From assembly GCA_041743505.1 (NCBI GenBank), contig JBGTMQ010000008.1, positions 69,183 to 133,182 on the forward strand: 64,000 nucleotides of DNA, given 5' to 3'. Source of the DNA: Candidatus Saccharimonadia bacterium. Its GTDB lineage: Bacteria; Patescibacteriota; Saccharimonadia; UBA4664. Below the pieces are notes generated by a model, which saw nothing but the letters and a program-made list of their open reading frames with translations, was not told the origin of the DNA and made no database searches. The position numbers and the translations under genes were made by a program. Positions within the stretch are counted from its first letter, which is position 1. Each line of letters starts with the position of its first letter. Positions 41,020-62,755 of this stretch are shown here, one piece after another.

Positions 41020-41094
41020 GCCGACGTAGCTCAACGGTAGAGCAACAGTTTTGTAAACTGTAGGTTGCGGGTTCGATTCCTGTCGTCGGCTCCA
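41020..41094 (+). tRNA. tRNA-Thr (anticodon UGU), CCA encoded
   Basis: Acceptor GCCGACG/CGTCGGC, anticodon stem ACAGT/ACTGT with loop TTTGTAA, T-loop GGTTCGATTCC. Confidence 0.7.
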
Positions 41095-41196
41095 GAAGTT
41101 GTAATTATACTCTCTTCCACCACTAGCTTTCATTCAGTCTTTATCAAGGGTCTTATTAGTATTCTCGAGCTGCCGGACCCTACCCCCGAGCAGCTT

Positions 41197-42102
41197 GTGG
41201 CCGTTACCACCAGTGCCATCGCCTTAGGCAACCATACCCTCCTAGACAGAGCCCGAAAACTTATCACACCCCGTCTCCAGTCCACAGCAATCAATACCTC
41301 AAGCGAAGACTTTCAGGTACTCAGGCATATCTTCGCCGCTTCAGACCCATTCGCATTGGTGCATCATCGCACCACACCGGCTGGCTTCGGGCTCCAGTAT
41401 AACGAGCTTCGAAGCTTCCGTCCCCGGCGCGAGTCCACTACTGCAACACCAACTGTGCACCGGCCATTCGAACCAGCAAAATTCAATTTTACACACATTT
41501 CAGGAGAGCGGTACTGGCAGGGAAGCTTTGGGAACAAACTGCTAGCTTGCTACTACAACAAGTATCCGTTTGCGCCATACCATACTTCACTTGTACCGGA
41601 TCCAGACAGCGACCATGAGCAGTTTCTAACTCAACCTTACCATGAACTAGCCTGGAATTTCCTACAAGCACTGGCCGGTGAGCAGCCAAAGGCCGTGCTC
41701 GGCTATAACTCTCTTGGCAGTTATGCCTCCATTAACCATCTCCACTTTCAACTCGTAGCTGATGGGCACAAGCTCCCGTTGTTGCACTCAAAGAACCTTA
41801 CTACCTATCCCATACCGGTAACCGAGCACCAAAACATCCAAACTGCTTGGCGTCAGATAGCTCACTTACAAGCCACTCAGCAGCCGTTTAATCTCATCTA
41901 TAGCGCCGGCCGGATGATTGTCATTGAACGGCAATTCCAGGGCACCTACCCACAACCAAACTGGACCACCGGCTTTGCCTGGTATGAATTATGCGGCGGC
42001 ATTATCACGGTCAGCGAGGACGCGTTCGATCGTATCACCGACGACGATATCACAACCGCCCTACAAACCACAGTTTCCGTGGCTAAAGCCTTGTCCAGTT
42101 AA
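41197..42102 (+). CDS. hypothetical protein; possible HIT-superfamily GalT-branch (HxHxQ) nucleotidyltransferase/phosphorylase
   Basis: INHLHFQLV (H-phi-H-phi-Q). The track ORF (41065) overlaps the tRNA and has no ATG after the tRNA end; GTG at 41197 was chosen tentatively. Confidence 0.4.
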   Translation: MAVTTSAIALGNHTLLDRARKLITPRLQSTAINTSSEDFQVLRHIFAASDPFALVHHRTTPAGFGLQYNELRSFRPRRESTTATPTVHRPFEPAKFNFTHISGERYWQGSFGNKLLACYYNKYPFAPYHTSLVPDPDSDHEQFLTQPYHELAWNFLQALAGEQPKAVLGYNSLGSYASINHLHFQLVADGHKLPLLHSKNLTTYPIPVTEHQNIQTAWRQIAHLQATQQPFNLIYSAGRMIVIERQFQGTYPQPNWTTGFAWYELCGGIITVSEDAFDRITDDDITTALQTTVSVAKALSS

Positions 42103-42920: not shown

Positions 42921-43871
42921 ATGGCCGAAAACCTCCAGCCAACTAGCGAACAAGAGCCAGACACCGGCTTTCCCCAAGCCGCCAAGCTACTAGCCGGCCT
43001 AAATGAAGCACCTCGACCGGCAATCCCCATGCCGCGTGCACCAAAAAAACGCCCGGAACTGCAACAGATTGATTTAGCCAACAAGCTCAGGCCAATCTAC
43101 CAGGAAGGAACTCAGTCAGAGCACGGCCATAACGAGCCACAAATACAAGAGCTGGCCGAACAGTACCAACTCAAATACCCCAACGAGCTTGAGGCTATCA
43201 CCATCCTCACTAATGTGCAGTCTTTCCTCGAACTCACCCAGCGTGTCAAAGATCCAGAACTCAAGCGGGAAGAAAAAAAGCCGCTTTTCAAGGAATTAAC
43301 CGAATATCAGTACCTTTGGACGCATTTTGTCATTACCAACTCTGACAAAACCCGGGTCATGGAGGACTTCTGGGAGGCTACCCACCGTATTGCCGAATCA
43401 GCCGGCTATGCAGAACCAGCCCGGGCATACCAATCCGGCATTATCACAGCCGCCGCCACCTATCAGATCTTTGAAGCTCTCGGCAAACAGCCACAATTGT
43501 CGCACCCTGCCGAGGACGCCTATGATGCAATTGATCTTTGGATTGACGAAACCAATCAACCCGTCCAAATCAAAAAAAGTAACGCGTCAGAAGTCGAAAT
43601 CGAAAAAACCGAAGACATAGAATTCCCTGCCCTAGAAGTAGCCGGCCCAGCCGGCCACACGCAGCATTTTGCCATCGAACAGCCAAACAGGGAACAGATC
43701 CAATTCAAGATGAACATCAAGCGATACGCCGAGCGTGTCGGTCATCCCGTGGATGGCTATTTTATACGCGTACCGTATGGACAGGTTGATTCCACCACCG
43801 GAAAACCGACACCAGAGCTAATCGAGCAAGTCCGCGCCAAACTCGCCGCCGAGGAACCCGAAGCAGCTTAA
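42921..43871 (+). CDS. hypothetical protein (316 aa)
   Basis: ORF track only. Confidence 0.45.
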   Translation: MAENLQPTSEQEPDTGFPQAAKLLAGLNEAPRPAIPMPRAPKKRPELQQIDLANKLRPIYQEGTQSEHGHNEPQIQELAEQYQLKYPNELEAITILTNVQSFLELTQRVKDPELKREEKKPLFKELTEYQYLWTHFVITNSDKTRVMEDFWEATHRIAESAGYAEPARAYQSGIITAAATYQIFEALGKQPQLSHPAEDAYDAIDLWIDETNQPVQIKKSNASEVEIEKTEDIEFPALEVAGPAGHTQHFAIEQPNREQIQFKMNIKRYAERVGHPVDGYFIRVPYGQVDSTTGKPTPELIEQVRAKLAAEEPEAA

Positions 43872-43921: not shown

Positions 43922-43997
43922 AGGGGTGTAGCTCAGTTGGTAGAGCACCGGTCTCCAAAACCGGGTGTCGTAGGTTCGAGTCCTATCACCCCTGCCA
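43922..43997 (+). tRNA. tRNA-Trp (anticodon CCA)
   Basis: Acceptor AGGGGTG/CACCCCT, anticodon stem CCGGT/ACCGG with loop CTCCAAA, T-loop GGTTCGAGTCC. Confidence 0.75.
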
Positions 43998-44012
43998 GAA
44001 ATTATCAAACAT

Positions 44013-44552
44013 CTAGGTTAGATCTAATTCAACAAAACTAGCCTTTTCTACCTCAAAATCCCAAGCTTGCTGATTTGTAAGCCCGTTCAGTAATCCATAG
44101 ATAGCCTGTACTATAACCATCGACGTAATGATAAGTACCGATTCGTATTTTTGTGTCCGCACTTCATCGATAAAACTCGCTGCCCGGGCTTTAACATCTT
44201 CTAGCGACTCACCATTATTAAAACGCACAGACCACCTATCATCAGCCTGATCGAGGGCTGCATAGTATTCTCTGAAATGCTTATCTTCATAACCCGTCCG
44301 GTTGTCGTTTAAGCGAGAATCTACCTTTACGGGAGCATTATGAAATTCATTAACGATTTCTGCGGTTTTCTGAGTGCGCTTAAGTTCAGATACAAAAATC
44401 TGGTCTATTCGTATCTTGCTGAGTTCTACGGCCAAACCCTTTACCTGTTGAATACCAGTTTCAGTAAGATGAACGTCCGTTTGCGGGTCGGAATTACACA
44501 AACCCAAGTCGTTATAATTAGTTTGTCCATGTCTAGCTAAGTATATTTTCAT
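44013..44552 (-). CDS. histidine phosphatase superfamily (phosphoglycerate-mutase-like) protein
   Basis: MKIYLARHGQTNYN (RHG catalytic motif). Low-GC gene. Confidence 0.8.
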   Translation of the reverse strand: MKIYLARHGQTNYNDLGLCNSDPQTDVHLTETGIQQVKGLAVELSKIRIDQIFVSELKRTQKTAEIVNEFHNAPVKVDSRLNDNRTGYEDKHFREYYAALDQADDRWSVRFNNGESLEDVKARAASFIDEVRTQKYESVLIITSMVIVQAIYGLLNGLTNQQAWDFEVEKASFVELDLT

Positions 44553-44681
44553 TTCTCTATAGTAAATGTATCTATCGCTATTACCTAAATCACTCGTGTC
44601 GTCCTCTTCACTTCTTTAAGGATAAACCAAAAATGGTGGCCTATATTTGCATTTTTACCACGCTAGTGGTTAAGTGTCGCT

Positions 44682-45251
44682 ATGGTCAAATTTGAGCCTG
44701 TACCTTCAGCTTCCAAACCCAAGTGCTATAGGATGGAGACACTAATACCTACAAGTACTGCCAATACACTTAAAACAATCCGCGACCTAGAAGGAAACAA
44801 TGTTACAGAAGTTGTTCGCAAAGTAGTAAGTATGTACAAATGGTATGACGACTGCAGAATAAACGGGAACCTTCTCATAGCCGCCCAACCACAGCAGCTA
44901 GAGGTGCTTGAGCCACCGGCCACCGTTAAGACCGGTGAAAATGAAGAACATGCAAAATTGTCCATCAAGGTAAGTCCAAGTATAAAGAGCTGTCTTGAGG
45001 TATTAATACCAGATGACCTCATGGATGAATCCGGTTTCTGGAAGGCAGCTGTTGTTTTTTATAGTTCCCTCATGGAAAAACAGCTTCTTGGCTCAAAATT
45101 CTATTGCATAGCCCCGGGTTTATCAGTCAGTCAATTTCACTTGGATGATCCTTTTGCGTCTGACAATAGTGCTCCAACAACCTTCGTTGAATGGAGATGG
45201 CTTAATCTTGATTTTGTGAGACGCCTATTCCGCAAGAAGCCACCTGGATAA
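44682..45251 (+). CDS. hypothetical protein (189 aa)
   Basis: ORF track; low-GC region. Confidence 0.4.
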   Translation: MVKFEPVPSASKPKCYRMETLIPTSTANTLKTIRDLEGNNVTEVVRKVVSMYKWYDDCRINGNLLIAAQPQQLEVLEPPATVKTGENEEHAKLSIKVSPSIKSCLEVLIPDDLMDESGFWKAAVVFYSSLMEKQLLGSKFYCIAPGLSVSQFHLDDPFASDNSAPTTFVEWRWLNLDFVRRLFRKKPPG

Positions 45252-45477
45252 GGTGGACACCACTCAATGCGATTCAACAGGGCAAACGAAAAACGGCTGC
45301 ACTATGCCCACCCCACGAAGCCATCACATGATGGCTTCTTTCTTGTTATAGACCCAAGCCAAAACAAAAAGCCCAAAAGTATTGCTATTAAACAATAAAA
45401 ATGATATAATATAATATCCTCAATCGAGTGATAACTCCTGCCCACATCCACCCCGAGACTCGAGGAGATGATCCGCA

Positions 45478-45855
45478 ATGTCGGATATCGAAACATTTTA
45501 CTACAACGCAGCAGCCAACGGCGTCGATTTCAAAGGGCACTGGGCAAGCATCATCCGGTGCTTTATCGTAGAGCCCCTCAGATTCGAAGCCCTGGTCGGG
45601 ACTGACGGACAAGTCAAATGGAAGGCACTCATGGAGCTCGGTCTCCTCGGTGCGCCCAGAAAGATCCGGCACCGGCACGGGTGGCACTTCCGCCCCTTCA
45701 CGACGACAGAAGTCGAAGCCATTTGCAGCTTATTCGCCGGTGGCGAAACAGTCCTCGGCCTTCACGCCCCAATCGACTTCTTCCACGGCCAGGACCGAGC
45801 CGTCTTCGGCAACCCCCTCGCGGGTACGGGCTTAATCCTACCACGTAACAACTAG
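45478..45855 (+). CDS. hypothetical protein (125 aa)
   Basis: ORF track only. Confidence 0.35.
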   Translation: MSDIETFYYNAAANGVDFKGHWASIIRCFIVEPLRFEALVGTDGQVKWKALMELGLLGAPRKIRHRHGWHFRPFTTTEVEAICSLFAGGETVLGLHAPIDFFHGQDRAVFGNPLAGTGLILPRNN

Positions 45856-46101
45856 CATCAACCGAGTAAACGGTCACAAGTCCACTAATGGCCAGGAGAA
45901 GCAACCCCTCTCCTGGCCATTCACATTACGATGTCATCTTCATCTATGCGTCAATCAAAATAGCCAAGCACACAAGATTATTGCAATTTTTTGATCGAGG
46001 CAGCCATATCTGGAAAGAAATGCAAGAAATGCCATTGCCAAGACATAAAAAAACAACATACAATAACACTAAAGTGGTTATGCTAAAAAGGTGGAGGGTT
46101 T

Positions 46102-49100
46102 ATGTTTCGATTGAGAAGCGTCCGGCGACTCGTACGTCAAAGTTCTATGGCTGCTAGTCGCCTTTTAAGTATAAAATTAATAGCAGCCTTGAAAGAACAT
46201 AAATTCAAGCAACCGGTAATTCATCTTTCAACAAACCCGTTTAGGGCGATATTAACACGCAACACCCTCAATATACTTGCCGTTGGCGTATTTTTTCTCA
46301 ATATTACCGCCATAGGTATTCCGGGCCTTATGGCCCAGTGGCAGGAGAAGGAGGCCCGAACGCCTCAAGCTCTTCAAGCTACGGATAATGATTTTGCTGC
46401 AGCCGCAGACGGCGCTAGTACCTCAAATAAGGCGTTAAAACTCGATAAAGCCGTAACAGATGAACTCGATAAGACGCGAGAAGAACTCATTCATGGTAAG
46501 GCAAAAAAGAATCCTAAACGCGTAAAAATGCTCGAAGAAGACCGTGACGTCAACTCCCGCGTTTTCTTAAATGACGATGGCTCAAAAACCCTAGAGAAGA
46601 GCACCTCTGCCACCAGTTACCGTGACAGCTTAGGCAAATGGAAAGACGTGGATGTCTCACTTGAGAAGGATTCGGTTAAAAATGAATGGAGTACAAAATC
46701 CAACTCCTGGAAGGCAACTTTTAAGGAAGCCAACGCTGAAACTGCAGTTGAATTATCACGTGGGGCACAAACTGTCCGCATTGCACCGGTAGGAGGCCAA
46801 AAGGTCAAGCCGACAGTAACTGGTAATGCGCCAAAACAATTAGTTACTTATAAAAACGTCTGGCCTGACGTCGATTTGCGTTACGTAGTAAATGGCTCGT
46901 CAGTAAAAGAGAGCATTTGGATTAAAGCGCCAACACAGCAAACAGAGTTTCAATTCAGCGTTAAAGGAGGCAACCTTTCGCCAAAGCCCGGTGAAACTGG
47001 CCGCTACAGTCTTGATGGGGAACTGTCTGATTTCACTCTCACGCGTTCATTTGTTGCCACAGCCGATCAGGGCATAGTGGGGGATGACGGATATATTACA
47101 CAGGATGTAAAACAAAACAGCATAATCCTAAAACTTAACCCGGAGTGGATTAAGCAGCAACCTGCTAAAGCATATCCGGTTGTCATTGATCCTTCCTTTA
47201 CTAGCTACACAACCGCACAAAACCATATGTCCTTTAAATCTGATGGCTGGTCATGCAACGCGCTCGACTGCGGAATAGGCACTGGCTACACAGGATCTCA
47301 CCAGTGGCGTAGTATAGCCTGGTTTCCCTATGACACCCTGGGACAAGCACCCACTAAGCACCTCACCAGCGCACAACTGTACTTGGAGATGGTTGACCCG
47401 GGAGTGATCAGCTACCCGGGTACCTATGACCCAAGGACAATCTCAGTCTATAAAGGCCAACGCGGCAGTAATGGTCATTATAATATAAACAGCGGCGTAA
47501 CTGATTATGGCATGGGTAGTGGCTCCATAGGGTACAACGGCACTATTGACGTTACAACTATATATCGCAATGCAATTGCAAATGCCGACTGGGGTATGCA
47601 TCTGTTCTTTGTTGGTGATGAAAGTCAGTATTCATACAAATTTAAGACATATCCAGATGCAAAGGTAACGTTTACCTATACTCACTCGCCGGGAGCCGCC
47701 ACACTCGAAGCACCCACAGATAAAGCATCTGTAGTTACGTCTCAACCTGTACTAAAAGCGAGCACCGCCACTGACCCCGATGGAGATCCGGTGCGGTACC
47801 GCTTTAAAGTGGCCACCAGTCCTGATGCCGAAGGTGGTACGGTAGTGAATTCGGGCTGGCTAGACACTCCGCAATGGACTGCTCCGGATGGCTCACTACA
47901 GGATGGAATGACATACTATTGGAAAGTTCAAACGTGGGACGGACTGTACATTAACTCATTTGGTACAGCAGGCTCCTGGAGCACCAGTTCAATCAGATCG
48001 TTCCGGGTTGATATGCGTAAAGGCAAAGACAATACTCAGGCCTATGACGCTGTCGGACCAATTAATGTCGATCTTGCTACAGGCAATCTAACAACAGGAA
48101 CAAAGAGCCACAGCATAGCTGCGCTTGGTGGTTCACTCGGCGTGAACCTGGACTACAACTCACCTCAGCGTTCACGCCCGGGCCTGATAGGTAAGTATTG
48201 GAATAATCCCACGCAGGCCGCAACATTCCCATCATCCTCAACCGCAGCTAGCGTAGAGCGGGTTGATGGCGTGGTTGACTTTAACTGGGGCAGCGGTTCG
48301 CCCGAGCCGGCCACTGTAACCACGGATAATTTTCTTGTCCGCTGGTCAGGTTATTTTGTAGCGCCGCAAGCTGGCACATATCAATTCGGAACCACCAGCG
48401 ATGATGGTGTACGCATTTACATCAATGACCTCAACACGGCATATGTTGATCAATGGAGTACTAGCCCAAGTAACATATATGGCGCAAGCGTGACGCTCGC
48501 GGCTGGTCAAGTAATTCCAGTTAAATACGAGTACCGTGAAGTCGGCGGACTGGCAAATACCAAGTTTCTCGTAAAAACGACTGATAGCTCTATTACTGCG
48601 CAACCTATACCAACTTCATGGCTGCAAACCGGCACACGATCTGTGGCGGTAGAACATGGACTCACTGGACGATACTTCGCCTACACAGGAGACAATCCGC
48701 CCGCCTCTCCATCAGATAGTGATCCAAGCCTATTCCTCAAACGCACAGATAGCAGCCCGTCATTCTATTGGAATAGTGCGGCCCCGGTATCTGGCGGGCC
48801 AACAGACAGGTTCTTGGTTCGTTGGACAGGTTATTATACGCCGGATGTGACAGACTCCTACCGATTCCGGATTGCAGCCGATGATGGCGTACGCATGTGG
48901 GTGAATAATCTTATTACGAACACGCAAGTTATTAACGACTGGGCAGATAATCCAGGCACGCGTGAGCAAGCCACGCCTATTTCACTAACCGCAGGGCAGT
49001 CCTATCCCGTTACAATCGAGTATTATGAGCACATTGGTAGCGCCATTTTCGACCTGCAATATAAAGGTTCCGATGGGATTTCTAAGGCCGTTCCATCTAA

Positions 49101-52100
49101 GTTGCTTAGCCCTAAGGTTCAAACGTTGCCCGACGGCTGGACGCTTGGTGGCGATATAAAGGGTGATCTGCCCTACGACTTTGCCCATATCGGCGCAAAT
49201 TCGGCAGTTCTCCAGGACACGAATGGTGAGTCGCATGAGTATAAGTGGACTGGCGCATCATACATTTCTCCTCCGAACGAAGACGGGCAGTTAACGCGTA
49301 ATGATGATGGCACCCTAACACTGCAGGCTGGCGATGGTCGCACCTACATCTTCGGGACAGATGGCAAGCTTTTGTCATCAACCTTACCAGCGGATGACAA
49401 AAATCCAGCTGCCGTTCAATACGAATATGGCCTGACGCCTTCTCGTCTCACTAAAATCAAGGACGGCATCAATCTTAACCGTTACGCTGAGTTGATTTAT
49501 GCTGGTGATAGCCGTTGTCCAAGTGCGCCAAGCGGATTTGTTGGAGCCAATGGCACAATGCTGTGCGCCGTCGTAACAACCGACGGCTCAACCACTACTC
49601 CGACAGATGCTAACATAACAAAGTTCTTCTATAGCGCCGACACCGGCGGCAACAAGCGTTTAGCCCGAGTAGTATCACCCGGAGCCGAGACAAGCGACTT
49701 CTCATACCTCACGGAGGATATTAACTCGCCAAACTCATGTTCTGGTTGTCTAAGTCAAATCCGCGACGCGATTGCAAATGACGCTGTAGCAGCAGGTGAA
49801 CGGTCACAAGACGCCACCGTAATGACTGAAATTGCATATGACGCGTTAGGACGAGTTATGAGCATAACTGGCCCAGCGGCACAGGCCGGGATAGCTCGAT
49901 TGGCCCACACTTACGAGTATCAAGCTGGCCACACGAAACTTCATACTACTGGCGCCACGGAGCCTAATGGCTTTACCCGGAAGGTTACATATGACAGCAC
50001 GTATAGGACGACAGAGGACCGCGATGCAGCCAATGTAGCTACATCAACCGAATGGGATGCTGGTAAAGACCAGGTTTTGTCATTAACGGATGGCGCTGGG
50101 CTTAAGAGCACAACGCATTACGACTACGCCGACCGGATAACCGACCAGTACGGCCCGGCCCCGGCCGGTTGGTTCGATATGACTCCTGGTACGAATTATA
50201 ATAAGCCTTCATCGGGCTATATCAATCAGATCCCACGTAAGCAAGCCAGCTATGACGAGGGCATTAACGGCCTCGCTGCCTCGTACTACACTTATAGCAC
50301 TAGCAGCAAAGCTCTAACGGGCGCGCCTAAGGGGCACCAAACAGGCATCGGCGGCACCGGCGGTGACGTAAATAAAAACTGGGCCGGCACGGCTCCATTC
50401 ACCACTTCATCACCATGGGGTGCGCGATTAACCGGCGATATCCTGTTGGGCGCAACCGGTAACTATACCTTCCGCATAGCCAGCGATGATGGAGTGCGGC
50501 TCTGGATTGACGATAAGCTCGTCATCAATGACTGGGCTGACGGCAGCTACCGCTCACATACCCAGCTCACAGGTGTGACAGTCAATAATGACACAGCCAA
50601 TAAGTACCATCGCATTCGCCTCGATTATTACAATAAAAGTAGTTCGGAGTCAGATGCGCAACTAGTGCTCTATATGACACCGCCAGGCGGCTCGGAGCAA
50701 TCCGGGCTCGGCAGTATTCTTGTTCCTCGCTATGGACTCGCAACAACTGCTAAAAACTACGACTCCTCCAGTAGCGTAGGTGATACTACCATCGCGACTA
50801 ACTACGGGAACAACCCAGAGCTAGCACTGCCGCAGTCTAAGACGGTTGATCCCGGAACGGGCACATTGAATCTTGCTAAAACCGCTAGCTATGAAACTCA
50901 GGGCGCAACCGGTAGTTACTTACGTCAACTCGGCACTGTACTGCCAGGCGGAAGTTCAACGAGTTATGGCTACTACTCGGCCACGGAAGTAAAAGATAAC
51001 CCTTGCACAACTGGCATTACCGAAACGTATGTGCAGGCCGGCATGATGAAGCTAAAGACACAGCCAGATCCTGATGGAGCCGGCTCTCAGGTCGGACGAA
51101 AATCGGAATCCATATATGACAATGCAGGACGAATAGTTGCCGCTCGTTACAATGCCGATTCATGGACATGCACAACCTATGACAACCGCGGCCGAGTAAC
51201 CCAAGTCTCAGTACCGAGCATAAATGGTCAGCCCGGCCGGACCATCACAACGAATTGGGCCGTAGGCAGCAATCCATTTGTAACCAGTATCACCGATAAC
51301 AACGGAACGGTAACTACAACTTCAGACTTATTAGGCAGAACAGTCATCTATCAGGACTCTCTCGGTACCTGGACCGACTACTCATACGATAGCCAAGGCC
51401 GCTTGATCAGTAAGGATAGCGATATGGGCTTAGAAGAGTTCGTCTATGACAGCTATAACCGGCTAACTGCGCAGAAGCTTGATGGCACAACGCTCGCAGT
51501 ACCGACGTATGATGCTTATAGCCGCATCACGAGCGTGACCTATCCGACGGCTGGGGCACAAGCTTTATCCATCTCACGGAATGACCATGGTCGCACCACA
51601 GGCTTAGATTACACCCTTGGCAACGGGTCAACGCACCTAACCGATTCCATTACACGTAGTCAATCTGGCAAGGTTGTAGGCGGTACAGAGTTAGGCCAGA
51701 CTAAGAGTTACACTTATGACAAAGCAGGCCGCCTTACGGCTGCGACTATCGGTTCGAACCAATTTACCTATAATTTCGGAGCCCCCACTGGCTGCTTAGG
51801 CGCCTATAACGCCGATGCGGGCAAGAACGCCAACCGTATAAGTATGAGTAAAACCGTAGGCGGAGTAACTACATCTACTTCTTACTGCTATGACTATGCT
51901 GACCGGTTGATCCAAAGTTCAGACTCCAACGCTGTAGACCCAGCCTATGACTCACATGGAAACCTCATAAATATGGGAACTTCGTGGAATGGCAAGTACA
52001 CGCAGTTCGCATATGACTCAAGTGATCGCAATATTGGTGTTCTTCAAAACTGGGGCAATGATTACGATATATATTACAACCGTGACGTTCAAAATCGCAT

Positions 52101-53166
52101 AACCTCAAGATTCGTTGCAGGCCTCAGTACAAGCTCAACCTGGTATGGTTTCACAGGTGCCAGTAGTGCGCCCGCCTTTACTCGAAATGCCAATTGGGAT
52201 ATTACAGAGAAGTATATGTCGCTCCCTGGCGGCGTACTATTAACCGTACGTCCCGGCCAAACTGGTGATAACCAAAAAGTATTCTCACTTCCCAACACTC
52301 ATGGTGATGTGATGGCTACCACCAACACGAGCGGCAACCAAACTGGTACGTTTAGCTACGATCCGTTTGGACAGACCCTAAGCTCAAGCATACCCGACAA
52401 TGCAGCAGGAGATGTCTCATTTGCTTGGGTTGGCCAACATCAAAAAGCCACTGAAGCAGATTTGGCGCTTAGGCCGATCCAGATGGGAGCTAGGGTGTAC
52501 ATTCCTTCACTTGGGAGATTCTCGAGCACAGACTCTGTAGAGGGTGGTGCCGAGAACGCCTATGTCTACCCTCCCGATCCAATTAATCTGTACGATATCG
52601 ATGGGAAGAACACGGCAGAGGAGGCCCTGGATGGTATAGGCGCCAGCGCAAATAGTGTTGGCTGGAAACTCGACGCACTCATGGTGGCCGTAGGTGTCGC
52701 ATGTGTAGCCAGCGGAGTCGGGGTAGTCATTTGTGGCGTAGGAGCCGCAACCGGTCTAGTTGTAACGACGGCTCAAGCATACAACAAGCACAATCGAGAT
52801 CCTGGCGCTGCAGCTGGAGAATTATTTCTATCAAGTATTTTCTGGGCAGCAGGTGGACCAATAGCTAAAAACATTGCTAAAATCAGCATCTCCTACATTG
52901 CTCCTGTCATTGCGCAGCGAGTAAAGCAGGTGGCGCCCGCAACGCCAATACGTGCAATTAATCGAACAGTGGCTACTGCAAAGCAGACTATACGGAACTC
53001 AATAGGTTATGCTGCAACCCTGTACGATGCGGCACGCCATATACCAGCTGCAAATCGGAACTATAATTATGGTGGAACACCCTATATGACAAGCCCATGG
53101 AGCGGGTATGCGGAGGTAAAAGAAATGATTCTGAAACACTTGGCTAATACGTGGAGAAGGGTATAA
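46102..53166 (+). CDS. giant polymorphic toxin: N-terminal signal-anchor, three PA14 domains, RHS/YD-repeat shell, RHS core ending DPINL, C-terminal glycine-zipper toxin domain
   Basis: GGAGG RBS. PA14-like segments start at ~48181, ~48658 and ~50269, each with the FLVRW(S/T)GY...DDGVR(I/M/L)(Y/W)(I/V)(N/D)(D/N) pattern. Many YD repeats ([29 protein letters not shown]...). RHS core tail ...[39 protein letters not shown] at ~52480-52605. The C-terminal 186 aa contain [26 protein letters not shown]. Confidence 0.9.
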
Positions 53167-53484
53167 ATGCGAATCTTTCCGGATAGATCCAGAAACTATA
53201 AAATCAAGGGGTGTGTTTGTGGAGAAACCAATGAGTCACTCAAGGTAAATAAGAACATGTATCATAATACGATCTTTCTATCTCTACTTAGTGTCCCGGT
53301 TATTCTGGGCTTTCCATGGGTAAGCCTGCACACTGATTTAGGTACAAAAGGTATAGTTGCCTGGGGGCTGATTCTAATTGTCTTGGGTTTTTATACATAC
53401 GGTACTACAAAGTTACTTGGTAAAGGCCATTCCTTGTTATGCTCTGTTCGACGAACAATGATTAATTTTGGAGCATTAACCTAG
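53167..53484 (+). CDS. putative cognate immunity protein (two-TM, CxCG...GHxLLCxxRR family), paralog 1
   Basis: Start abuts the toxin stop (TAAATG). MRIFPDRSRNYKIKGCVCGE..., two hydrophobic helices, ...GKGHSLLCSVRR. Confidence 0.65.
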   Translation: MRIFPDRSRNYKIKGCVCGETNESLKVNKNMYHNTIFLSLLSVPVILGFPWVSLHTDLGTKGIVAWGLILIVLGFYTYGTTKLLGKGHSLLCSVRRTMINFGALT

Positions 53485-53504
53485 GCACCAAATAACAGAT
53501 GTGA

Positions 53505-53888
53505 AGCACTGGCTCACACGACAATACGTCCGATGGCGCATTTGTAGGTGAGGCTGGGCTGGGCCTACTATTTCTTGGACTAGGCGGGGAAGGAGCAAAA
53601 CAAATAGCTAAGATAACAATAAAGCCCATCGCAGCCAAAATAGCTCAGACAGCTCGCCAAGTTGCACCAAAGATAACCATAAACAATAAGGTTGTCGCCG
53701 TAAAGCAGCGCATCCAATATACAATTGGATATGGTGCAACAATAACAGATACATTACGTCAGATCTGGCCCAGCAAGCCGGTTTATAACTATGGTGGTAC
53801 GCAGTATATGACAAGTCCTTGGAGCGGCTTAGCGCAAGCAAAGGAAGTCATTATGAAATACTTAGCTAAGGCGTGGAGCGGGGCTTAG
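53505..53888 (+). pseudogene. orphan, start-less toxin C-terminal cassette paralogous to the last ~105 aa of the 46102-53166 toxin
   Basis: Frame-0 translation ...GGEGAKQIAKITIKPIAAKIAQTARQVAPKITI...[35 protein letters not shown] aligns with the toxin end ...[29 protein letters not shown]...[35 protein letters not shown]. No start codon; the frame is bounded upstream by a stop at 53502-53504. Confidence 0.7.
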
Positions 53889-53889
53889 A

Positions 53890-54217
53890 ATGCAAATATT
53901 CCCAAATCGCAAAAAAAAAGCAAAGCGTTACTTCATGTATTTGTGGGCGGTCTAACGAAATGCAAAAGATAAATAAAGCGAAATATCACAATATGACCCT
54001 ATTAATCAGTATGGGCCTAGTTGGTTACCTAGGTGCATTAGTGATTTTCCCGATGTTACTGCAGTCGCCCCGAGGTGTTACTACGAGAGGATGGATTGCC
54101 TTCGCCATAGGCACTTGCATGGTAGCGTATCTGATCTTCCTTGTCAGAAAAAATACAAAGCAGGGCCACAAATTACTTTGTTCAATGAGAAAATCCATGT
54201 TTCAGCTTGCGAGTTAG
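53890..54217 (+). pseudogene. immunity-family paralog 2 interrupted by a frameshift in an A9 homopolymer (53911-53919)
   Basis: ATG at 53890 reads MQIFPNRKKK, then hits a stop after 21 codons. The -1 frame continues ...KQSVTSCICGRSNEMQKINKAKYHN...QGHKLLCSMRKSMFQLAS. Removing one A restores a 108-aa paralog. The track's intact ORF needs a GTG at 53873 inside the preceding cassette. Confidence 0.6.
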
Positions 54218-54264
54218 CCGAGCACTCCTAAGTGCTCAATGTAGCGAGCACCACTTACACTAAG

Positions 54265-54543
54265 ATGAAAATATTTCCCCTCCCTTTAACGAAATATCCT
54301 CTAGACAAGGCGCTCAAAGAGATTAAGTTGTTCTTGGCCATTGGTTATTCAATACTTGCCTTAACGGTGTTCGTAAGCATATTCTTCGCATTGCCTGCGA
54401 TGGTGGTATGCGGTCGTCCGCTCGTATTGTGCTTTAATCCCGCTGTCAAAAAGCATCCAGATGGTAAAAAATACATGACTGCGAGTGTTGTGTTAGCGGT
54501 CCTATCGGTTCTATGCTTTGTGGTGTATCTAATAGTCAAGTAG
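54265..54543 (+). CDS. small two-TM membrane protein (MKIFP... N-terminus, distinct core), putative immunity paralog 3
   Basis: Internal Met start MKIFPLPLTKYP chosen by analogy with the paralog N-termini. Two hydrophobic helices. Lacks the GH.LLC motif. Confidence 0.45.
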   Translation: MKIFPLPLTKYPLDKALKEIKLFLAIGYSILALTVFVSIFFALPAMVVCGRPLVLCFNPAVKKHPDGKKYMTASVVLAVLSVLCFVVYLIVK

Positions 54544-54593
54544 CATTCTCCGCACACTACTTACATTTATATAAAGTTTAAGCAGCTGATAAC

Positions 54594-54914
54594 ATGAAAT
54601 TTTTCCCAGACCGTTCAAAAAAATATAAGCTAAAAAAATGTGTATGCGGGAAAGAAACCGAAAATGTCAAAGTTAACAGGAGCATATATCATAACGTAAT
54701 TCTATTTACGATAATTGGCGTTTTCGGTTTCCTTCTCTTGACCGTAATCAGTTTCTATACTCCGTTGCCTACTGATTCATGGATTGCCTGGCTGATTATG
54801 GCAGCAATACTTAGCTATGATGGATGGCAACTGTGGGTTAATACCCAACAGGGACATAATTTATGGTGCGCACTGAGAAGGGTCATGATAAGTGTTGCAG
54901 GAGCTAAAGACTAG
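54594..54914 (+). CDS. immunity-family paralog 4
   Basis: MKFFPDRSKKYKLKKCVCGKETE..., two TM helices, ...QQGHNLWCALRR. Confidence 0.65.
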   Translation: MKFFPDRSKKYKLKKCVCGKETENVKVNRSIYHNVILFTIIGVFGFLLLTVISFYTPLPTDSWIAWLIMAAILSYDGWQLWVNTQQGHNLWCALRRVMISVAGAKD

Positions 54915-54994
54915 AAAGACTCACAGAATACTTGAGCTTACAGCTATGATAATATTTTCTCATGCTTGCCAGACATCGAAATAACTAGCTCGAC

Positions 54995-55420
54995 ATGAAT
55001 AGCCCTGAAATTCTTGGCTGGATTATTTTTTGGCTTGGAACGTTGTTATTCACGGTCTTCTGTATTTATATTGCACTTCGAATAAAGGGTAACAAAGATC
55101 GTGAGTACACCGTTCGCCCCTGTATTTGCGGTCGCCGCGCCCCCTCAATCAGTTTATTCGCAGGCAATGGTTCAGGCTGGGCCGGATTCATCATTCTATA
55201 TAGCCTAATGGCGATATTACCCGCATTGTATATCGTAGACGCAACGAGTTTTATGCTGATTGAGATCCCCTGGTATTTATGGTTATCCTTGGCCCTATAC
55301 CTGTCAGGAGGTCTTGTCCCCCTTATTAAGTTCATCACTTGGGGCCATTCGCTATTGTGCGCATTACGCCGGGGACTTCTTGGCCTCGTATGGTTTTTTC
55401 ATTACAGCCACAAACACTAG
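54995..55420 (+). CDS. immunity-family paralog 5 (extra N-terminal TM helix)
   Basis: ...RPCICGRR... then TM helices and ...WGHSLLCALRR. Confidence 0.55.
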   Translation: MNSPEILGWIIFWLGTLLFTVFCIYIALRIKGNKDREYTVRPCICGRRAPSISLFAGNGSGWAGFIILYSLMAILPALYIVDATSFMLIEIPWYLWLSLALYLSGGLVPLIKFITWGHSLLCALRRGLLGLVWFFHYSHKH

Positions 55421-55522
55421 ATCCAATAGCCTTTGCGCTGTATCTAGCAGCCAAGTACACATTCGCGTGCCTGTACATGCGGCATATCAAAGGAAAAGCT
55501 TCAACGAAACCGGGCAATACTG

Positions 55523-55741
55523 GTGTTACAAAGTGGCTTGTTTATTATTGCTCTTCCAATAATACTTTCGCTGCTTATCTTTCTCGACTGGAGAGAAATG
55601 CTAAGTAAACTTTGGTTCGCCTACATATTCACGGCCGGGGAAGTCATTGCGCTCGTAATAATCGCTAGACGCTATCGACGCAAGCGTCATGGAACAATCT
55701 GCGCGCTACGCCGCGCACTTATCGCTATGTCGCCCAGATAA
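55523..55741 (+). CDS. immunity-family paralog 6 (short, C-terminal motif only)
   Basis: Two hydrophobic helices then RHGTICALRRAL. Confidence 0.45.
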   Translation: MLQSGLFIIALPIILSLLIFLDWREMLSKLWFAYIFTAGEVIALVIIARRYRRKRHGTICALRRALIAMSPR

Positions 55742-55810
55742 GCTTTCCTTTATATCCATATAATGGTAAAGTAGCTTATCCTTCCCGTTCATGTCCGAAA
55801 GGGGCGGAAG

Positions 55811-57097
55811 GTGGATGACTCCGCAACGACCGAACTCATTCGGTTAAACGCACTATGCGGCAAAAATATTGGTGCCTACATGAACCAAGTCCGCCGCATC
55901 CCATTCCTCATCCCTCAACTACAACAGGACCTAGCCACCATAGCCCAGGAAGGAGTTGAGGCCGAGGAAAGCCTGGAGAAGTGCCTCAAGGGCAAGCGCA
56001 CATTGACATCAGCCCAACGAAAAAGCCAATGGTACACTCGGCTTCAACGCCAAATCATCGCAGGCAAAGAGGCCCAAATCCGCCTGGTCTACCATAATCT
56101 GCGCTTCGCAGCCTACTTTGCCCGCCATTCCATGGGCTGGAAACAGCATTCCGATGATGAGTTCATTACTGAGCTGAACTTTGGAAAACCACGTGGTGGA
56201 GCGCCGCTACACACCCTGGATATGTTTGCGGGCAATTCATTGCCCCTGGAAGATAGGATACAGGTAGGCAATCTGTCGCTCATCAAGTCAGCCGGCAAGT
56301 ATCAACCATATTGCGGCGAGAGGATAGACCCGGTCACCGGAGCAAAAACCACCAAGCCCATCGCCAAATTCACGACCTATGCCGCCCATAACCTCTACGA
56401 TATGCTCCACCGGGCGTTTATGGTCGAAAAGTACCGTGACGGGCTATCACTCAGCTTGGCCAGAAGTATGCACCAAATGCAGGCAGCACGTAAAAAGCTC
56501 CGACGGCTCACAGGCTACGAGCCGTCCATCAATGAACTGGTGGACGACACCGATCTTGGTTACAAAGCCGTCGAATTTCGTCTCGAGGAGGAATTTGGAT
56601 GTCCCAACACCACGCTGGAAGAGCTAGCCACCACCACCTGGGTCCACGACCTCGCCACCAACGCCCGGCTGGGCCTGGCGGACCTGCTCTGGGATGACAC
56701 CATCCTGGACCCGCACGACACGCTCATCGAGCTTGATCTGCTAGATAGCATAGAGCGGGTTCTGGGCACCCTGTCAGAGCGCGAAGCCGGCGTAATTGCC
56801 TTGCGGTTTGGGCTTCGCGATGGCGAGTGCCGGACACTGGATGAGATTGGTTATGTCTATGGCGTAACCCGCGAACGCATCCGCCAAATCTTGGGCCACA
56901 CCATGACATTGCTTCGCCACCCGTCGCGAAGTAATCAATTGCGCAACCACTGGTGTGAGCAAGACCCGCTCGAAGAGCGCGATGAGCGCCGCGAAGCCAA
57001 GGAACGCCGCGACCGTACCATCACGCTCCTCTCGCATCCGCATCTCTACCCGGACACCATTAAGCCAATAGCCAAGCACAGGGCTAAGGCCAAATAG
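55811..57097 (+). CDS. sigma-70 family RNA polymerase sigma factor, highly divergent with insertions in region 2
   Basis: Region 1.2-like YMNQVRRIPFLIPQLQQDLA. Region 2.1/2.2 IRLVYHNLRFAAYFARH ... DRIQVGNLSLIKSAGKY. Region 2.3/2.4 FTTYAAHNLYDMLHRAF. Region 4 LSEREAGVIALRFGLRDGECRTLDEIGYVYGVTRERIRQILGHTM. Basic/acidic C-terminal tail. Confidence 0.75.
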   Translation: MDDSATTELIRLNALCGKNIGAYMNQVRRIPFLIPQLQQDLATIAQEGVEAEESLEKCLKGKRTLTSAQRKSQWYTRLQRQIIAGKEAQIRLVYHNLRFAAYFARHSMGWKQHSDDEFITELNFGKPRGGAPLHTLDMFAGNSLPLEDRIQVGNLSLIKSAGKYQPYCGERIDPVTGAKTTKPIAKFTTYAAHNLYDMLHRAFMVEKYRDGLSLSLARSMHQMQAARKKLRRLTGYEPSINELVDDTDLGYKAVEFRLEEEFGCPNTTLEELATTTWVHDLATNARLGLADLLWDDTILDPHDTLIELDLLDSIERVLGTLSEREAGVIALRFGLRDGECRTLDEIGYVYGVTRERIRQILGHTMTLLRHPSRSNQLRNHWCEQDPLEERDERREAKERRDRTITLLSHPHLYPDTIKPIAKHRAKAK

Positions 57098-57207
57098 ACC
57101 TTCATCCATGCAAAAAATAGCCGCTCTCCAGGACATTACGTCTTGAAGTGCGGCTTTTCAATTAATAAAGTGGCCCTCACTGGTTGCGAGACCCCACTTG
57201 ACGGAAC

Positions 57208-58152
57208 CTAATCAACGCTCTCTTCGTCATCGATATCGGTACCGTTATCTCCAGTTTGCCCATTATCAGGAGCACAGGCTGTTAGCCGCAAGCGGCGGCG
57301 CGCAAACTTGGCCTCAAGCATCTCACGAGTCTGGAAGAACTTATTGCCATGCCAAATCTCCGCCAGCGACGTATCCTGCACATTACCCACCGTCAACCAG
57401 CGCGAGAACACGCACGGCAGAACATTACCGGTACGGGTGATAGCCACCACGCTCTTAACGCAATGCCCACAGAGCTCGTCGGTAGTAGCACACAGGCTGC
57501 GCTCTCCGCGCCCCACCTGCCGCAAATGATCCATCCGGATAGACTTCTCGAACACCCCCAGAGACATGAGATCCCTGCGGGCGCCGGCACAATCCTGGCC
57601 ATTGCCCGAATCAACAATCCCAACCCGCAGCCGGATATCCCGGCGAAGTGCCTCAATAATATTATCTCTAGTCCGCCCATGGCTGCCACGCCGCTTGGTG
57701 ATAGCGTCATGCTCAGTGGCAATGCTCGAATGATAGCTCGTAGCAACCCTCACGCCCGGGAGCGAGAAAACCTCCCACACCTCCGGCTCGACGAACATAA
57801 GGTTGGTGTAAACCTCTACCTTGAGCTCACACGAAAGTGCGTAACGAATCAAAGACGACAGGGAAGGATGTAGTGTCGCTTCACCCCCAATGAACTGCAC
57901 CATATCGGCGCCAAGTACCTTAACGTCACGAATCACCCGCCGCCAGTCGTCATCCGACATGCTACCGTGATTGCCACGAGGGCCAGCGTTCAGGTAGCAG
58001 ATAGTACACTCTTCGTTGCACTTGTCGGTAATCTCAAGCCACGCGAACTTGAGTCCCGTGCTTGCCGTCTGCGACCTTGCTTCTTCTGCTACCAGTGCAG
58101 TCATAGCGGTCCTGCTTCCTATTGGGATGGATAGAACACAATGCCGGCCCAT
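57208..58152 (-). CDS. radical SAM enzyme with C-terminal SPASM/twitch-like Cys-rich domain
   Basis: CNEECTIC (C-x3-C-x2-C) SAM-cluster motif. C-terminal LCGHCVKSVVAITRTGNVLPCVF... Confidence 0.75.
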   Translation of the reverse strand: MGRHCVLSIPIGSRTAMTALVAEEARSQTASTGLKFAWLEITDKCNEECTICYLNAGPRGNHGSMSDDDWRRVIRDVKVLGADMVQFIGGEATLHPSLSSLIRYALSCELKVEVYTNLMFVEPEVWEVFSLPGVRVATSYHSSIATEHDAITKRRGSHGRTRDNIIEALRRDIRLRVGIVDSGNGQDCAGARRDLMSLGVFEKSIRMDHLRQVGRGERSLCATTDELCGHCVKSVVAITRTGNVLPCVFSRWLTVGNVQDTSLAEIWHGNKFFQTREMLEAKFARRRLRLTACAPDNGQTGDNGTDIDDEESVD

Positions 58153-58256
58153 GCCCTGGAGTAGGCAATATATGCGCCGGCATAACGATAAGTATACATT
58201 AAAGTGTCAATATGTTCTAGAATGCGCTAGAAAATATAATAGCGTAAACTTACATA

Positions 58257-59645
58257 ATGAAGCATGATTTTTTTAACGACCTCGACTCATATATTCAAGA
58301 CACACGCCCAGGGTTCGAAAAACAATTAGCCGAATTGGTCGCCATTCCCACCGTCAGCACCGATCCGGACCACGCTGCCGATATTATACTTGGCGCACAA
58401 CTTGCCGTCACTTATCTCACTAGAATCGGATTCACCGCCAGAGTTGTGCCCACCGCCGGACACCCGGTAGTAGTTGGCGAGTTAATCGGAGACGCCAGCT
58501 GGCCCACCGTCACTATCTACAACCACCTCGACGTCCAACCGGCCGACCCCGGTGAGTGGCAAACCCCGCCGTTCATGCTCACTACGTCTGACGACAAGTA
58601 CTTTGGCCGCGGCGCCACCGATGACAAAGGGCCGGCCTTAACTGCTCTCATGGCCACAAAATATGCCCACGAACACCAGCTGCCGCTCAATTTTAAATAC
58701 ATCTGGGAATTCGAAGAAGAGAGTGGCAGCACCCATTTCGAAGACTTCATAGTAGCTGAGCGTGCGGCTCTGGACACCGATTCGGTTTTGGTATCGGACA
58801 GTGTCTGGATCTCCGCCGGCCGCGCGGCTATACCATATGGCTTGCGCGGATTGGTTTCGTTCGAATTGAGGCTCCAGACCGGCCGTAGCGACGTCCACTC
58901 CGGTCTGGCCGGCGGCGCAGCTCGCAACCCACTGGGCGAGCTAATGCAAATCATCATCGAATGCTACGACGCCACCACCGGACATGTCAAAGTCCCCGGT
59001 TTCTACGACAGCGTTCAACCCGTCACCGAAGCCGAACTGGACAGCTTTGTCGCTTCGGGCTTCGACGCTAAAGTCTTCGCCAAAGCACATGGTCTCAGCT
59101 CAATGCGCACCGTCGATAACCGTGATCTCGCCAGACGAGTTATGGCTGAGCCAACATTTGAGGTCCATGGCCTGCTTGGCGGCTATACTGGACCGGGTAT
59201 TAAAAACATCATTCCACCTGCCGCCACCGCCAAATTAAGCACCCGGCTCGTACCCGGCCAACATCCAGAGCAAACATTTGATCTAATCAAGAAGTTCATC
59301 AACCAGAAGCACCCAGACGTCGTAGTAAGCCCAGGAGATGCCTGCGAGCCATATCTCGGCGCGTTTGAAGGATCATACACAACTGCCGCCATAAACGCCA
59401 CTAACTATGCCTTCGGCTCCACTCCGGCGTTCATTCGTGAAGGCGGCTCAATCGGTTCCGTGCTGACCATGGCACATCACCTTAAAGCTCCCATAATACT
59501 CCTTGGGCTAAGCCTGCCCAGCCACGGCTACCACTCGGTCAATGAACACTACGACTGGACTCAGGCCTCAGGCGGCATCAAATTGTTCGTCAAGTACTTT
59601 AGTGAGATCGCAGATATTAAGCGCGGCCACATCACGTCGAGCTAG
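58257..59645 (+). CDS. M20 family metallopeptidase (dipeptidase/deacylase-like)
   Basis: YNHLDVQPAD, GRGATDDKGPALTALMA, EFEEESGS. Confidence 0.8.
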   Translation: MKHDFFNDLDSYIQDTRPGFEKQLAELVAIPTVSTDPDHAADIILGAQLAVTYLTRIGFTARVVPTAGHPVVVGELIGDASWPTVTIYNHLDVQPADPGEWQTPPFMLTTSDDKYFGRGATDDKGPALTALMATKYAHEHQLPLNFKYIWEFEEESGSTHFEDFIVAERAALDTDSVLVSDSVWISAGRAAIPYGLRGLVSFELRLQTGRSDVHSGLAGGAARNPLGELMQIIIECYDATTGHVKVPGFYDSVQPVTEAELDSFVASGFDAKVFAKAHGLSSMRTVDNRDLARRVMAEPTFEVHGLLGGYTGPGIKNIIPPAATAKLSTRLVPGQHPEQTFDLIKKFINQKHPDVVVSPGDACEPYLGAFEGSYTTAAINATNYAFGSTPAFIREGGSIGSVLTMAHHLKAPIILLGLSLPSHGYHSVNEHYDWTQASGGIKLFVKYFSEIADIKRGHITSS

Positions 59646-60817: not shown

Positions 60818-60857
60818 AGCGTTCCCTAGCGAGCATTACCGCTTAATATAGTACCAT

Positions 60858-62625: not shown

Positions 62626-62755
62626 TGTGCTTGTTTCCCCGTTCTAGTCTGCTGGTTCTGCTGATTATGCCCCATGACCCGCGCTCCTGGTAACGCGTTA
62701 GTTACTGGGAAGTAACAGTACTACCTAGAGATTACCACAGTAAGGTTAGGTAGCG

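Follow-up and report, generated by a model that had tools for sequence, protein, structure and literature searches.

The Rhs loci of Dickeya dadantii and of E. coli and Salmonella, the WapA/WapI systems of Bacillus subtilis and Streptococcus suis, and the toxin Tse5 of Pseudomonas aeruginosa are the closest described counterparts of the locus considered here, a gene encoding a PA14-RHS polymorphic toxin followed by an array of immunity genes. The locus lies at 44,000-55,800 of a stretch of 64,000 nucleotides (nt; hereafter the window) from a genome of Candidatus Saccharimonadia. Among the known systems, genes for contact-dependent inhibition (CDI) and Rhs genes are followed by start-less orphan modules made up of a C-terminal toxin (CT) and its immunity gene (PMC3150448). 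The WapA/WapI systems of B. subtilis and S. suis provide Sec-exported, wall-associated YD-repeat toxins of monoderms (PMC12704120, PMC4436062). Tse5 (RhsP1), the structure of which has been solved (PMC10684867), has a toxin tip without predicted enzymatic activity that inserts in membranes and depolarises them, and its immunity protein Tsi5 has two predicted transmembrane (TM) regions (PMC9637101).

In the window a block rich in adenine and thymine (AT) extends from a tRNA-Trp gene to a sigma factor gene and contains, in this order, a histidine phosphatase gene on the minus strand, the open reading frames (ORFs) orf189 and orf125, an RHS ORF of 2,354 amino acids (aa) and a run of small ORFs (Table 1). 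We consider it likely that the block is an accessory, horizontally assembled RHS/YD-repeat polymorphic-toxin locus in a Saccharibacteria genome, acting by the mechanism proposed below. The weapon is of an ordinary bacterial kind; its toxin and immunity parts are new. Saccharibacteria and other members of the Candidate Phyla Radiation (CPR) live on host bacteria, and how they harm these hosts and exclude rivals is poorly understood. A full-text literature search combining Saccharibacteria, Rhs and toxin found no paper on an RHS toxin in the group, and the locus offers a toxin/immunity pair from this lineage that is amenable to testing.

The PA14-RHS gene and its immunity array

The Pfam matches of the RHS protein were PA14 (E=2e-61) in three stretches, RHS_repeat (E=1.1e-14), GLEYA and a weak DUF7948; NCBIfam added Rhs_assc_core and YD_repeat_2x, and a weak precomputed match to TEN_YD-shell was also present. 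Its relatives among PDB sequences were the PA14 tandem of RsgI3 (1.9e-31) and, over the repeat region, the Rhs protein 8h8a (1.7e-10). The RsgI3 match covers aa 694-1002 and is to the polysaccharide-sensing PA14 tandem of C. thermocellum; PA14 domains 1 and 2 are presumed to bind carbohydrate, and the third PA14 domain sits inside the RHS repeat region. The Rhs-associated core ends in a 12-residue DPxG-type motif (aa 2157-2168), which is presumed to be both the boundary and the self-cleavage motif before the toxin tip. The Pfam scan found no PAAR or other secretion-system adaptor domain, and the neighbouring genes encode a phosphatase, two hypothetical proteins and a sigma factor, a setting that does not mark the protein as a type VI secretion system (T6SS) effector.

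About a dozen full-length homologs, 37-60% identical, came from a search of 5.8 billion proteins; the sources named for some of them were Candidatus Saccharimonadales or Saccharibacteria and, for one, Kribbella caucasensis. In the analysis the assignment of the window to Saccharibacteria was based on these source names and on a tRNA-Trp sequence in common with members of the group. Most of the BLASTP alignments that reached the C-terminus stopped at residue 2168-2169, beyond which the tips are mutually unrelated (one is GIY-YIG-like and two are of another type), with partial similarity persisting into the tip in the homologs P0008 and P0014. Rhs-type polymorphic toxins are defined by such an abrupt loss of homology at the core motif.

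The five paralogous genes downstream, imm1 to imm5, encode proteins that are 19-38% identical to one another and have two TM helices in common. Residues C16, C18, G19, H88, C92 and R95 (imm1 numbering) are invariant across the paralogs (alignments A2 and A4). Both motif-bearing ends of these proteins are rich in lysine and arginine, which by the positive-inside rule argues that both motifs are cytoplasmic, and a metal site of the form Cys-x-Cys...His...Cys is therefore plausible. An AlphaFold2 (AF2) model of the imm1 protein, with a predicted local distance difference test score (pLDDT) of 70, has a beta-hairpin around the CxC and helices at 29-55, 60-85 and 90-104, and gave no Foldseek match in PDB. 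The immunity genes had no meaningful match in Pfam (E up to 10), NCBIfam or PHROGs, and a profile search of the 5.8 billion proteins found two members of the family outside this genome, the metagenomic proteins P0004 and P0005. The imm4 protein is 58% identical to P0005 and 45% identical to P0004, and the gene for the latter follows another PA14-RHS gene at a distance of about 4 kb. A metagenome scan with the alignment of this subfamily (A6) found no locus.

Between imm1 and imm2 lies an orphan toxin fragment that has neither a start codon nor RHS core sequence. BLASTP aligned it with the last 96 aa of the CT at 53% identity (E=9e-30), and its final 100 nt form one copy of a DNA repeat, D1, in which 53,062-53,161 and 53,784-53,883 are 77% identical. 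Together with imm2 the fragment constitutes an orphan toxin/immunity module of the sort known from CDI and Rhs loci (PMC3150448). This remnant, imm2 and the diverged imm3, imm4 and imm5 make up the usual record of toxin-tip replacement, and the spare paralogs would be a stock of immunity against the variants of rivals. Of the remaining small ORFs, orf103, which matched no family, could have arisen by decay of a paralog or be an immunity gene of unrelated origin, and imm5 is probably a pseudogene or has an unusual start. Both the toxin tip and the immunity proteins belong to new families, which are very rare and match no family described.

The sequence-only reading had named a PA14-RHS polymorphic toxin with an immunity array in this block, and both parts of that identification held up. 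The domain architecture, the stop of the homolog alignments at residue 2168-2169, the abutting imm1, the orphan CT fragment and the five paralogs together support a polymorphic-toxin locus of the classic kind.

Related loci gave further grounds for pairing the tip with imm1. The RHS gene of locus L009 encodes a protein of 60% identity with a related tip (44% identity through residue 2302), and tblastn showed that it is followed by two to three unannotated immunity copies: three small two-TM proteins, of which two have both CxCG and GHxLxC and the third has only a variant of the C-terminal motif. At loci L006 and L010, where the tips are of other types, the proteins encoded downstream of the RHS gene are soluble, acidic and without TM segments. 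Hence, tip and immunity family co-vary, which supports both a cognate pairing and an interaction located at the membrane.

The RHS homologs occupy unrelated neighbourhoods in every genome examined. At L006 (Saccharimonadales GCA_036388415.1; 8343-8810, 17221-18492) the PA14-RHS gene lies downstream of smpB, and behind it come genes for a large serine recombinase, for ParB-methyltransferases and for a ThsB-TIR/caspase pair, an arrangement resembling that of a mobile defence island; neither a tmRNA nor a tRNA was detected by ARAGORN in the 26.8 kb covered. The L010 RHS gene is beside GmrSD/HEPN defence genes. Such differing neighbourhoods fit accessory, horizontally moving DNA. Over the RHS shell (aa 1276-2168; window 49927-52605) the K. 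caucasensis protein P0012 is 58% identical to the window protein, above the 48% of the Saccharimonadales homolog. Kribbella belongs to the Actinomycetota, the phylum of the known hosts of Saccharibacteria, and the shell similarity may reflect gene exchange between the phyla of epibiont and host.

Table 1 Features of the tRNA-Trp to sigma factor region (window coordinates)
Feature	Position	Strand	Basis and remarks
tRNA-Trp (CCA)	43922..43997	+	ARAGORN; Rfam tRNA, 72 bits; CCA end encoded; left compositional boundary of block
Histidine phosphatase superfamily, 179 aa	44013..44552	-	Pfam His_Phos_1, E=1.3e-37; GC 0.409; convergent with tRNA
orf189, hypothetical	44682..45251	+	GC 0.433; AT-rich
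Terminator-like hairpin (candidate)	45317..45338		Strong; 3' of orf189, 5' of orf125
Promoter-like site (candidate)	45382..45410		Upstream of orf125
orf125, hypothetical	45478..45855	+	GC 0.579, GC3 0.706; GC-rich inside AT-rich block
Promoter-like site TTGCCA-18-TACAAT (candidate)	46035..46064	+	Consensus scan; 38 nt 5' of RHS start codon
PA14-RHS polymorphic toxin gene, 2,354 aa	46102..53166	+	Pfam, NCBIfam, PDB sequence relatives, homologs
Signal anchor, aa 55-78	46264..46335	+	Mean Kyte-Doolittle 2.11; basic stretch before
PA14 domains 1 and 2, aa 694-835 and 852-998	48181..49095	+	Pfam, best stretch 852-998; internal BLASTP repeat
PA14 domain 3, aa 1389-1515	50266..50646	+	Internal BLASTP to PA14 domain 2, E=3.6e-11
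Rhs-associated core, aa 2086-2168	52357..52605	+	TIGR03696, 40.4 bits (cutoff 32.5)
CT, 186 aa, residues 2169-2354	52606..53166	+	Hydropathy, homolog boundary; includes stop (coding 52,606-53,163)
imm1, presumed cognate immunity, 105 aa	53167..53484	+	ATG abuts RHS stop; two TM; CxCG and GHxLxCxxR
Orphan toxin fragment, 127 codons + stop	53505..53888	+	Codons to 53,885; homologous to C-terminal two-thirds of CT
imm2, 114 aa	53873..54217	+	27-30% identical to imm1; same motifs; two TM; pairs with orphan fragment
orf103	54232..54543	+	Two TM; MKIFP-type N-terminus as in imm1 and imm3; without Cys/His motifs
imm3, 106 aa	54594..54914	+	38% identical to imm1; motifs kept
imm4, 141 aa	54995..55420	+	Extra N-terminal TM helix; subfamily of P0004 and P0005
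imm5	55448..55741	+	CxCG upstream of any ATG/GTG/TTG; ORF from GTG 55,523; right edge of AT-rich block
Sigma-70 family gene	55811..57097	+	Adjoins block; only region 4 above Pfam cutoff

Proposed action of the toxin tip

The CT is 18% alanine, 9% glycine, 9% valine and 8% isoleucine, with a strongly hydrophobic segment at its residues 21-58 (window 52666-52779; hydropathy 2.53). It matched no Pfam family at E<6, and nothing meaningful was found in Pfam with E up to 10, in NCBIfam or in PHROGs. A HMMER scan of 1.84e9 representative proteins gave ten matches, of which about four are true relatives, all of them C-terminal RHS fragments or short orphans. Matches to ankyrin-repeat proteins were confined to the last ~30 residues and were judged a chance resemblance to the repeat consensus. 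In the seven-member CT alignment (A5) only G84, I95 and Y160 are invariant, and no Asp, Glu, His, Lys or Arg is conserved that could serve in catalysis. The AF2 model of the CT is all-helical. Tips of otherwise unrelated types (P0008, P0013, P0014, P0015 and P0017) also begin with a hydrophobic stretch rich in Gly, Ala and Val, which in the tips of the PA14-RHS family comes right after a DPxN..D.G motif. This stretch may be a shared membrane-entry segment.

As the CT is hydrophobic, is predicted to be helical, lacks conserved catalytic residues and never occurs without a two-helix membrane protein as partner, we lean slightly towards a CT that acts on membranes, by depolarisation or by forming pores, in analogy to Tse5. 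The mechanism that we propose for the whole system would begin with Sec export of the 2,354-aa protein, predicted from its N-terminal signal anchor. The three PA14 domains, lectin-like as is usual in their family, would bind glycans on the surface of a neighbouring cell. The RHS shell would enclose the 186-aa CT and release it by cleavage at the conserved motif seen at the end of the core, upon which the CT would attack the cytoplasmic membrane of the target. Sister cells would be protected by imm1, which would block the toxin inside the membrane. If the tip is indeed membrane-active, it would be a second Rhs pore-former, unrelated to the Tse5 type, and would come with an immunity fold that has a possible metal site.

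It is also possible, though we think it rather unlikely, that the hydrophobic part of the CT serves only in translocation and that the last ~100 residues strike a cytoplasmic or membrane-associated target, in which case the membrane-tethered immunity protein would capture the tip through a cytoplasmic Cys/His knuckle. Such an arrangement would explain why unrelated tips share the hydrophobic start, among them the GIY-YIG-like P0013 and also P0015, which has a soluble immunity partner, and it agrees with the coverage of the C-terminal part by both the orphan fragment and the strongest CT conservation and with the predicted cytoplasmic location of the Cys/His motifs. Against it, the CT alignment offers no conserved polar or charged residue of the kinds listed above, no enzyme family was matched at any threshold, and toxins that act on membranes typically have immunity proteins embedded in the membrane, Tsi5 being an example (PMC9637101).

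Several points weigh against the reading that we prefer, a horizontally assembled locus with a membrane-acting toxin. The structure model of the CT is unreliable (pLDDT 37), and a profile of the CT family compared with all PDB chain sequences, among which the solved Tse5 structure should be, gave chance matches only. The L010 tip, P0015, has the Gly/Ala-rich hydrophobic start yet a soluble immunity partner, and hence the hydrophobic stretch may serve these tips in common for entry, in which case the last ~100 residues would do the killing. Toxicity, cleavage, export and immunity are all predictions from sequence. Finally, the horizontal origin taken up in the next section rests on composition and patchy distribution, and no donor or empty site was found.

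A broader picture can be drawn, although we regard it as doubtful: by means of a Sec-exported PA14-RHS cocoon a Saccharibacteria epibiont might attack its actinobacterial host, or competing epibionts, with a membrane-active toxin of a new type, protect itself with a new family of two-helix membrane proteins that hold a cytoplasmic Cys-x-Cys...His...Cys site resembling a zinc knuckle, and have a toxin scaffold that was perhaps exchanged across phyla.

Composition and origin of the block beside tRNA-Trp

The tRNA-Trp gene closes a cluster of tRNA-Thr, tRNA-Tyr, tRNA-Thr and tRNA-Trp (ARAGORN, Rfam), and across it the guanine-plus-cytosine (GC) fraction drops from 0.51 to 0.41. The GC of 44,000-55,800 is 0.474, against 0.542 in 1-43,900 and 0.532 in 55,811-64,000. 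In 2-kb windows the background outside the block has a mean of 0.542 with a standard deviation (SD) of 0.025; z(GC) falls to -3 to -4 at 43.5-48 kb, returns close to background (about -0.8 to -1.2) at 48-51 kb, in the middle of the RHS gene, and falls again to -3 to -4.9 at 52-56.5 kb. Tetranucleotide distance parallels GC and peaks at +8 SD over the small ORFs. The GC content of third codon positions (GC3) is little influenced by amino-acid content. Relative to a background of 0.608 +/- 0.061 (56 genes), GC3 deviates by -3.9 SD in the histidine phosphatase gene, -3.4 in orf189, -2.2 in the RHS gene, -3.8 in imm1, -2.4 in imm2, -3.5 in imm3, -1.8 in imm4 and -1.6 in orf103, and by +1.6 SD, opposite in sign to the rest of the block, in orf125. 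Over all of the tRNA cluster (40.5-44 kb) GC is also mildly below background (z about -1.6).

The AT-richness of the block is real and far above window-to-window noise. It is also a mosaic of at least five segments, with the GC-rich orf125 among them, and not a uniform island, which argues for several events plus toxin-tip recombination instead of a single integration. The immunity genes of related loci are likewise AT-richer than the RHS genes that they follow: GC is 0.35 against 0.46 at L006 (16789-17172), 0.48 against 0.52 at L009 (8349-9962) and 0.27 against 0.41 at L010 (8000-9900), a locus whose genome, at about 0.30, has less GC than the RHS gene. AT-rich immunity genes thus look like a general property of toxin-tip/immunity cassettes; those of enterobacterial Rhs elements are AT-richer as well. 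We attribute the AT-richness of the block to foreign and recombinant origin, strongest at the toxin-tip/immunity end as in other Rhs loci.

Much of the compositional side of the sequence-only reading was correct. It had described the block between tRNA-Trp and the sigma factor as AT-richer than its flanks, as it is at 47.4% GC, and had put the immunity ORFs at about 40% GC by eye, where we measured 39-46%; the flanks, given as ~57%, came to about 54%. The sliding-window GC and tetranucleotide analysis that it proposed returned a strong deviation, but as a patchwork in which the RHS body is near background and orf125 is GC-rich. Its wider claim was that an island had been inserted at the tRNA-Trp 3' end. 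The toxin/immunity content and the foreign-looking composition and codon usage bear this claim out in part, whereas insertion at that site found no support, as follows.

No second copy of the 3' end of tRNA-Trp, as would be expected at the far edge of the block, was present. Searches with a 25-mer and a 16-mer, allowing 3 mismatches, returned only the tRNA itself, and a Smith-Waterman scan of both strands of 44,013-58,500 gave nothing above chance (best local score 10.0, shuffled mean 10.1). The ORFs of the block include no integrase, recombinase, phage or plasmid gene by Pfam, NCBIfam or PHROGs, and the block ends have no similarity to known phages or plasmids.

The sequence-only reading had also pointed to the missing secE, nusG, rplK and rplA, which often follow tRNA-Trp. 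These genes are indeed not in the window, and tblastn with E. coli L11, L1, L10 and NusG was negative; the same queries readily matched 12 alphaproteobacterial loci, which served as a positive control. Those loci came from a scan of species genomes with the 3' 25-mer of tRNA-Trp, which gave 18 loci (L016-L033); the 25 nt are identical in many Rhodospirillaceae and other Alphaproteobacteria and in a few Patescibacteria, the latter without the alphaproteobacterial gene order. In the 12 alphaproteobacterial loci tRNA-Trp is preceded by tuf and followed by nusG, rplK, rplA and rplJ; in the window tuf is at 12,488, after fusA. In UBA1944 (L030, 6 kb downstream) and UBA6209 (L019, 0.8 kb downstream) tRNA-Trp is followed by unrelated genes, and UBA6209 has 7 kb of glycogen-metabolism genes between tRNA-Thr and tRNA-Trp. 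With nusG-rplK-rplA missing behind tRNA-Trp in these two Saccharibacteria as well, little weight can be put on synteny in this lineage, and the tRNA-Trp neighbourhood is variable among Saccharibacteria generally. The tRNA-Trp of another Patescibacteria contig, L025, is one inserted base away from that of the window.

No close relative of the region was found in genome, metagenome or protein collections, and exact look-ups returned contigs of the same organism from two sequencing runs. The Logan contigs of SRR28170470 (L003, L004) break inside tRNA-Trp, at about 43941-43970, and overlap by about 30 nt, and those of SRR28170471 break inside the RHS gene. The break in tRNA-Trp could be due to variation between strains or to a second organism with the same tRNA. 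For the sigma factor that adjoins the block, a scan of 185,579 species genomes found no relative, and the best homolog among the 5.8 billion proteins was 43% identical and non-syntenic; the gene is unusually divergent or the lineage is barely sampled. The holB gene gave 36% identity at best, and matches in a scan of Joint Genome Institute (JGI) metagenomes were 28-36% identical, non-syntenic and without tRNA-Trp nearby.

We consider it improbable that 44.0-55.8 kb entered in one step at the tRNA-Trp 3' end as a classical island that later lost its integrase and distal repeat. The position of the AT-rich DNA, which starts 15 nt past the tRNA-Trp 3' end and stops before the next native-looking gene, would suit such an event, as would the break of one sample's Logan contigs inside tRNA-Trp; moreover, the RHS locus at L006 beside smpB and a large serine recombinase indicates that the family can travel on integrative elements. 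Set against this are the lack of any tRNA 3' end repeat over 14.5 kb, where the best score equals the shuffled mean, the lack of an integrase, recombinase or phage gene in the block and the mosaic composition with its GC-rich ORF and near-native RHS body, and in addition the loss of secE-nusG synteny is common to other Saccharibacteria and contig breaks in conserved tRNA genes are to be expected in metagenomes. Most improbable is an ancestral locus of low GC owing to amino-acid make-up, weak expression and relaxed codon selection. In its favour, the immunity genes encode membrane proteins rich in Ile, Leu, Phe and Lys, GC in the RHS body departs from background by no more than about 1 SD, and the L010 RHS gene, GC-richer than its AT-rich genome, suggests a protein-driven composition. 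Against it, GC3 is 2-4 SD low in most genes of the block (including those for the soluble histidine phosphatase and orf189), tetranucleotide distance reaches +8 SD, the RHS homologs are at different loci in every genome examined and the Kribbella shell is closer (58%) than that of Saccharimonadales (48%). We retain horizontal assembly, probably by several events, as the likely origin. For annotation there are two lessons, that AT-rich sequence next to a tRNA does not on its own show that an integrase inserted it and that the secE-nusG rule of thumb fails in Saccharibacteria.

The histidine phosphatase gene is probably accessory and has no evident tie to the toxin. Neither orf189 nor orf125 has a match in Pfam, NCBIfam or PHROGs; orf125 is also predicted as a gene on the Logan contigs. 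The promoter-like and terminator-like sites of Table 1 are candidates, as the counts from the scan of the region were not above shuffled expectation.

Elsewhere in the window, a 345-aa ORF at 41065-42102 (+) overlaps tRNA-Thr (41020-41094), and its true start is thus probably further downstream; neither it nor a 316-aa ORF between tRNAs at 42,921-43,871 has a family match. A second AT-rich accessory gene at 16403-17326 (+; 307 aa, GC 0.43, GC3 -3.2 SD, tetranucleotide distance +3.7 SD) directly follows rpsJ (15999-16325) and parts it from the remaining ribosomal-protein genes, which start again near 23 kb. It has the look of a further insertion, in this case into an operon that is usually conserved.

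Comparison with described systems

Islands targeted to tRNA genes share with the window a deviant composition from the tRNA 3' end onwards and accessory cargo; the window differs from them by its lack of an integrase and of a repeat of the tRNA 3' end and by its mosaic composition.

Of the features of RHS/YD systems the window has the shell repeats, the core with its DPxG-type motif, an adjacent immunity gene that co-varies with the tip, and an orphan module. The Rhs loci of D. dadantii and of E. coli and Salmonella have, like the window, an RHS shell and a core with a DPxG-type motif (PMC3150448, PMC4436062), after which homology ends abruptly, with an immunity gene directly downstream, an orphan toxin that lacks a start codon and is paired with an immunity gene, and a tip/immunity end that is AT-richer. 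Unlike these loci, the window is without PAAR, VgrG or other T6SS context and has instead a signal anchor and three PA14 domains; its orphan fragment lacks core sequence, so that simple reloading by homologous recombination is not obvious; four of its five immunity paralogs have no adjacent toxin fragment; and its host belongs to the CPR/Saccharibacteria.

WapA/WapI resembles the window in its N-terminal export signal (predicted for the window), in the lack of a dedicated injection system, in its YD/RHS repeats, variable C-terminal toxin and adjacent immunity gene, and in its use, presumed for the window, against close relatives; both belong to the RHS superfamily. However, the WapA tips characterised so far act as nucleases (tRNases) and have immunity proteins that are soluble, whereas the window has a hydrophobic tip and membrane-embedded immunity, and PA14 domains stand in the window protein in place of the wall-binding region of WapA.

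For the toxin itself the model is Tse5/Tsi5. Tse5 is delivered by the T6SS through VgrG, unlike the window toxin, and the two tips have no detectable sequence similarity, which makes the relation one of analogy and not of family membership. The CxCG and GHxLxC motifs of the window immunity family are not known from Tsi5. In overall design, however, the two agree: both combine an Rhs cocoon, a small, helical, hydrophobic tip and an immunity protein with two TM segments.

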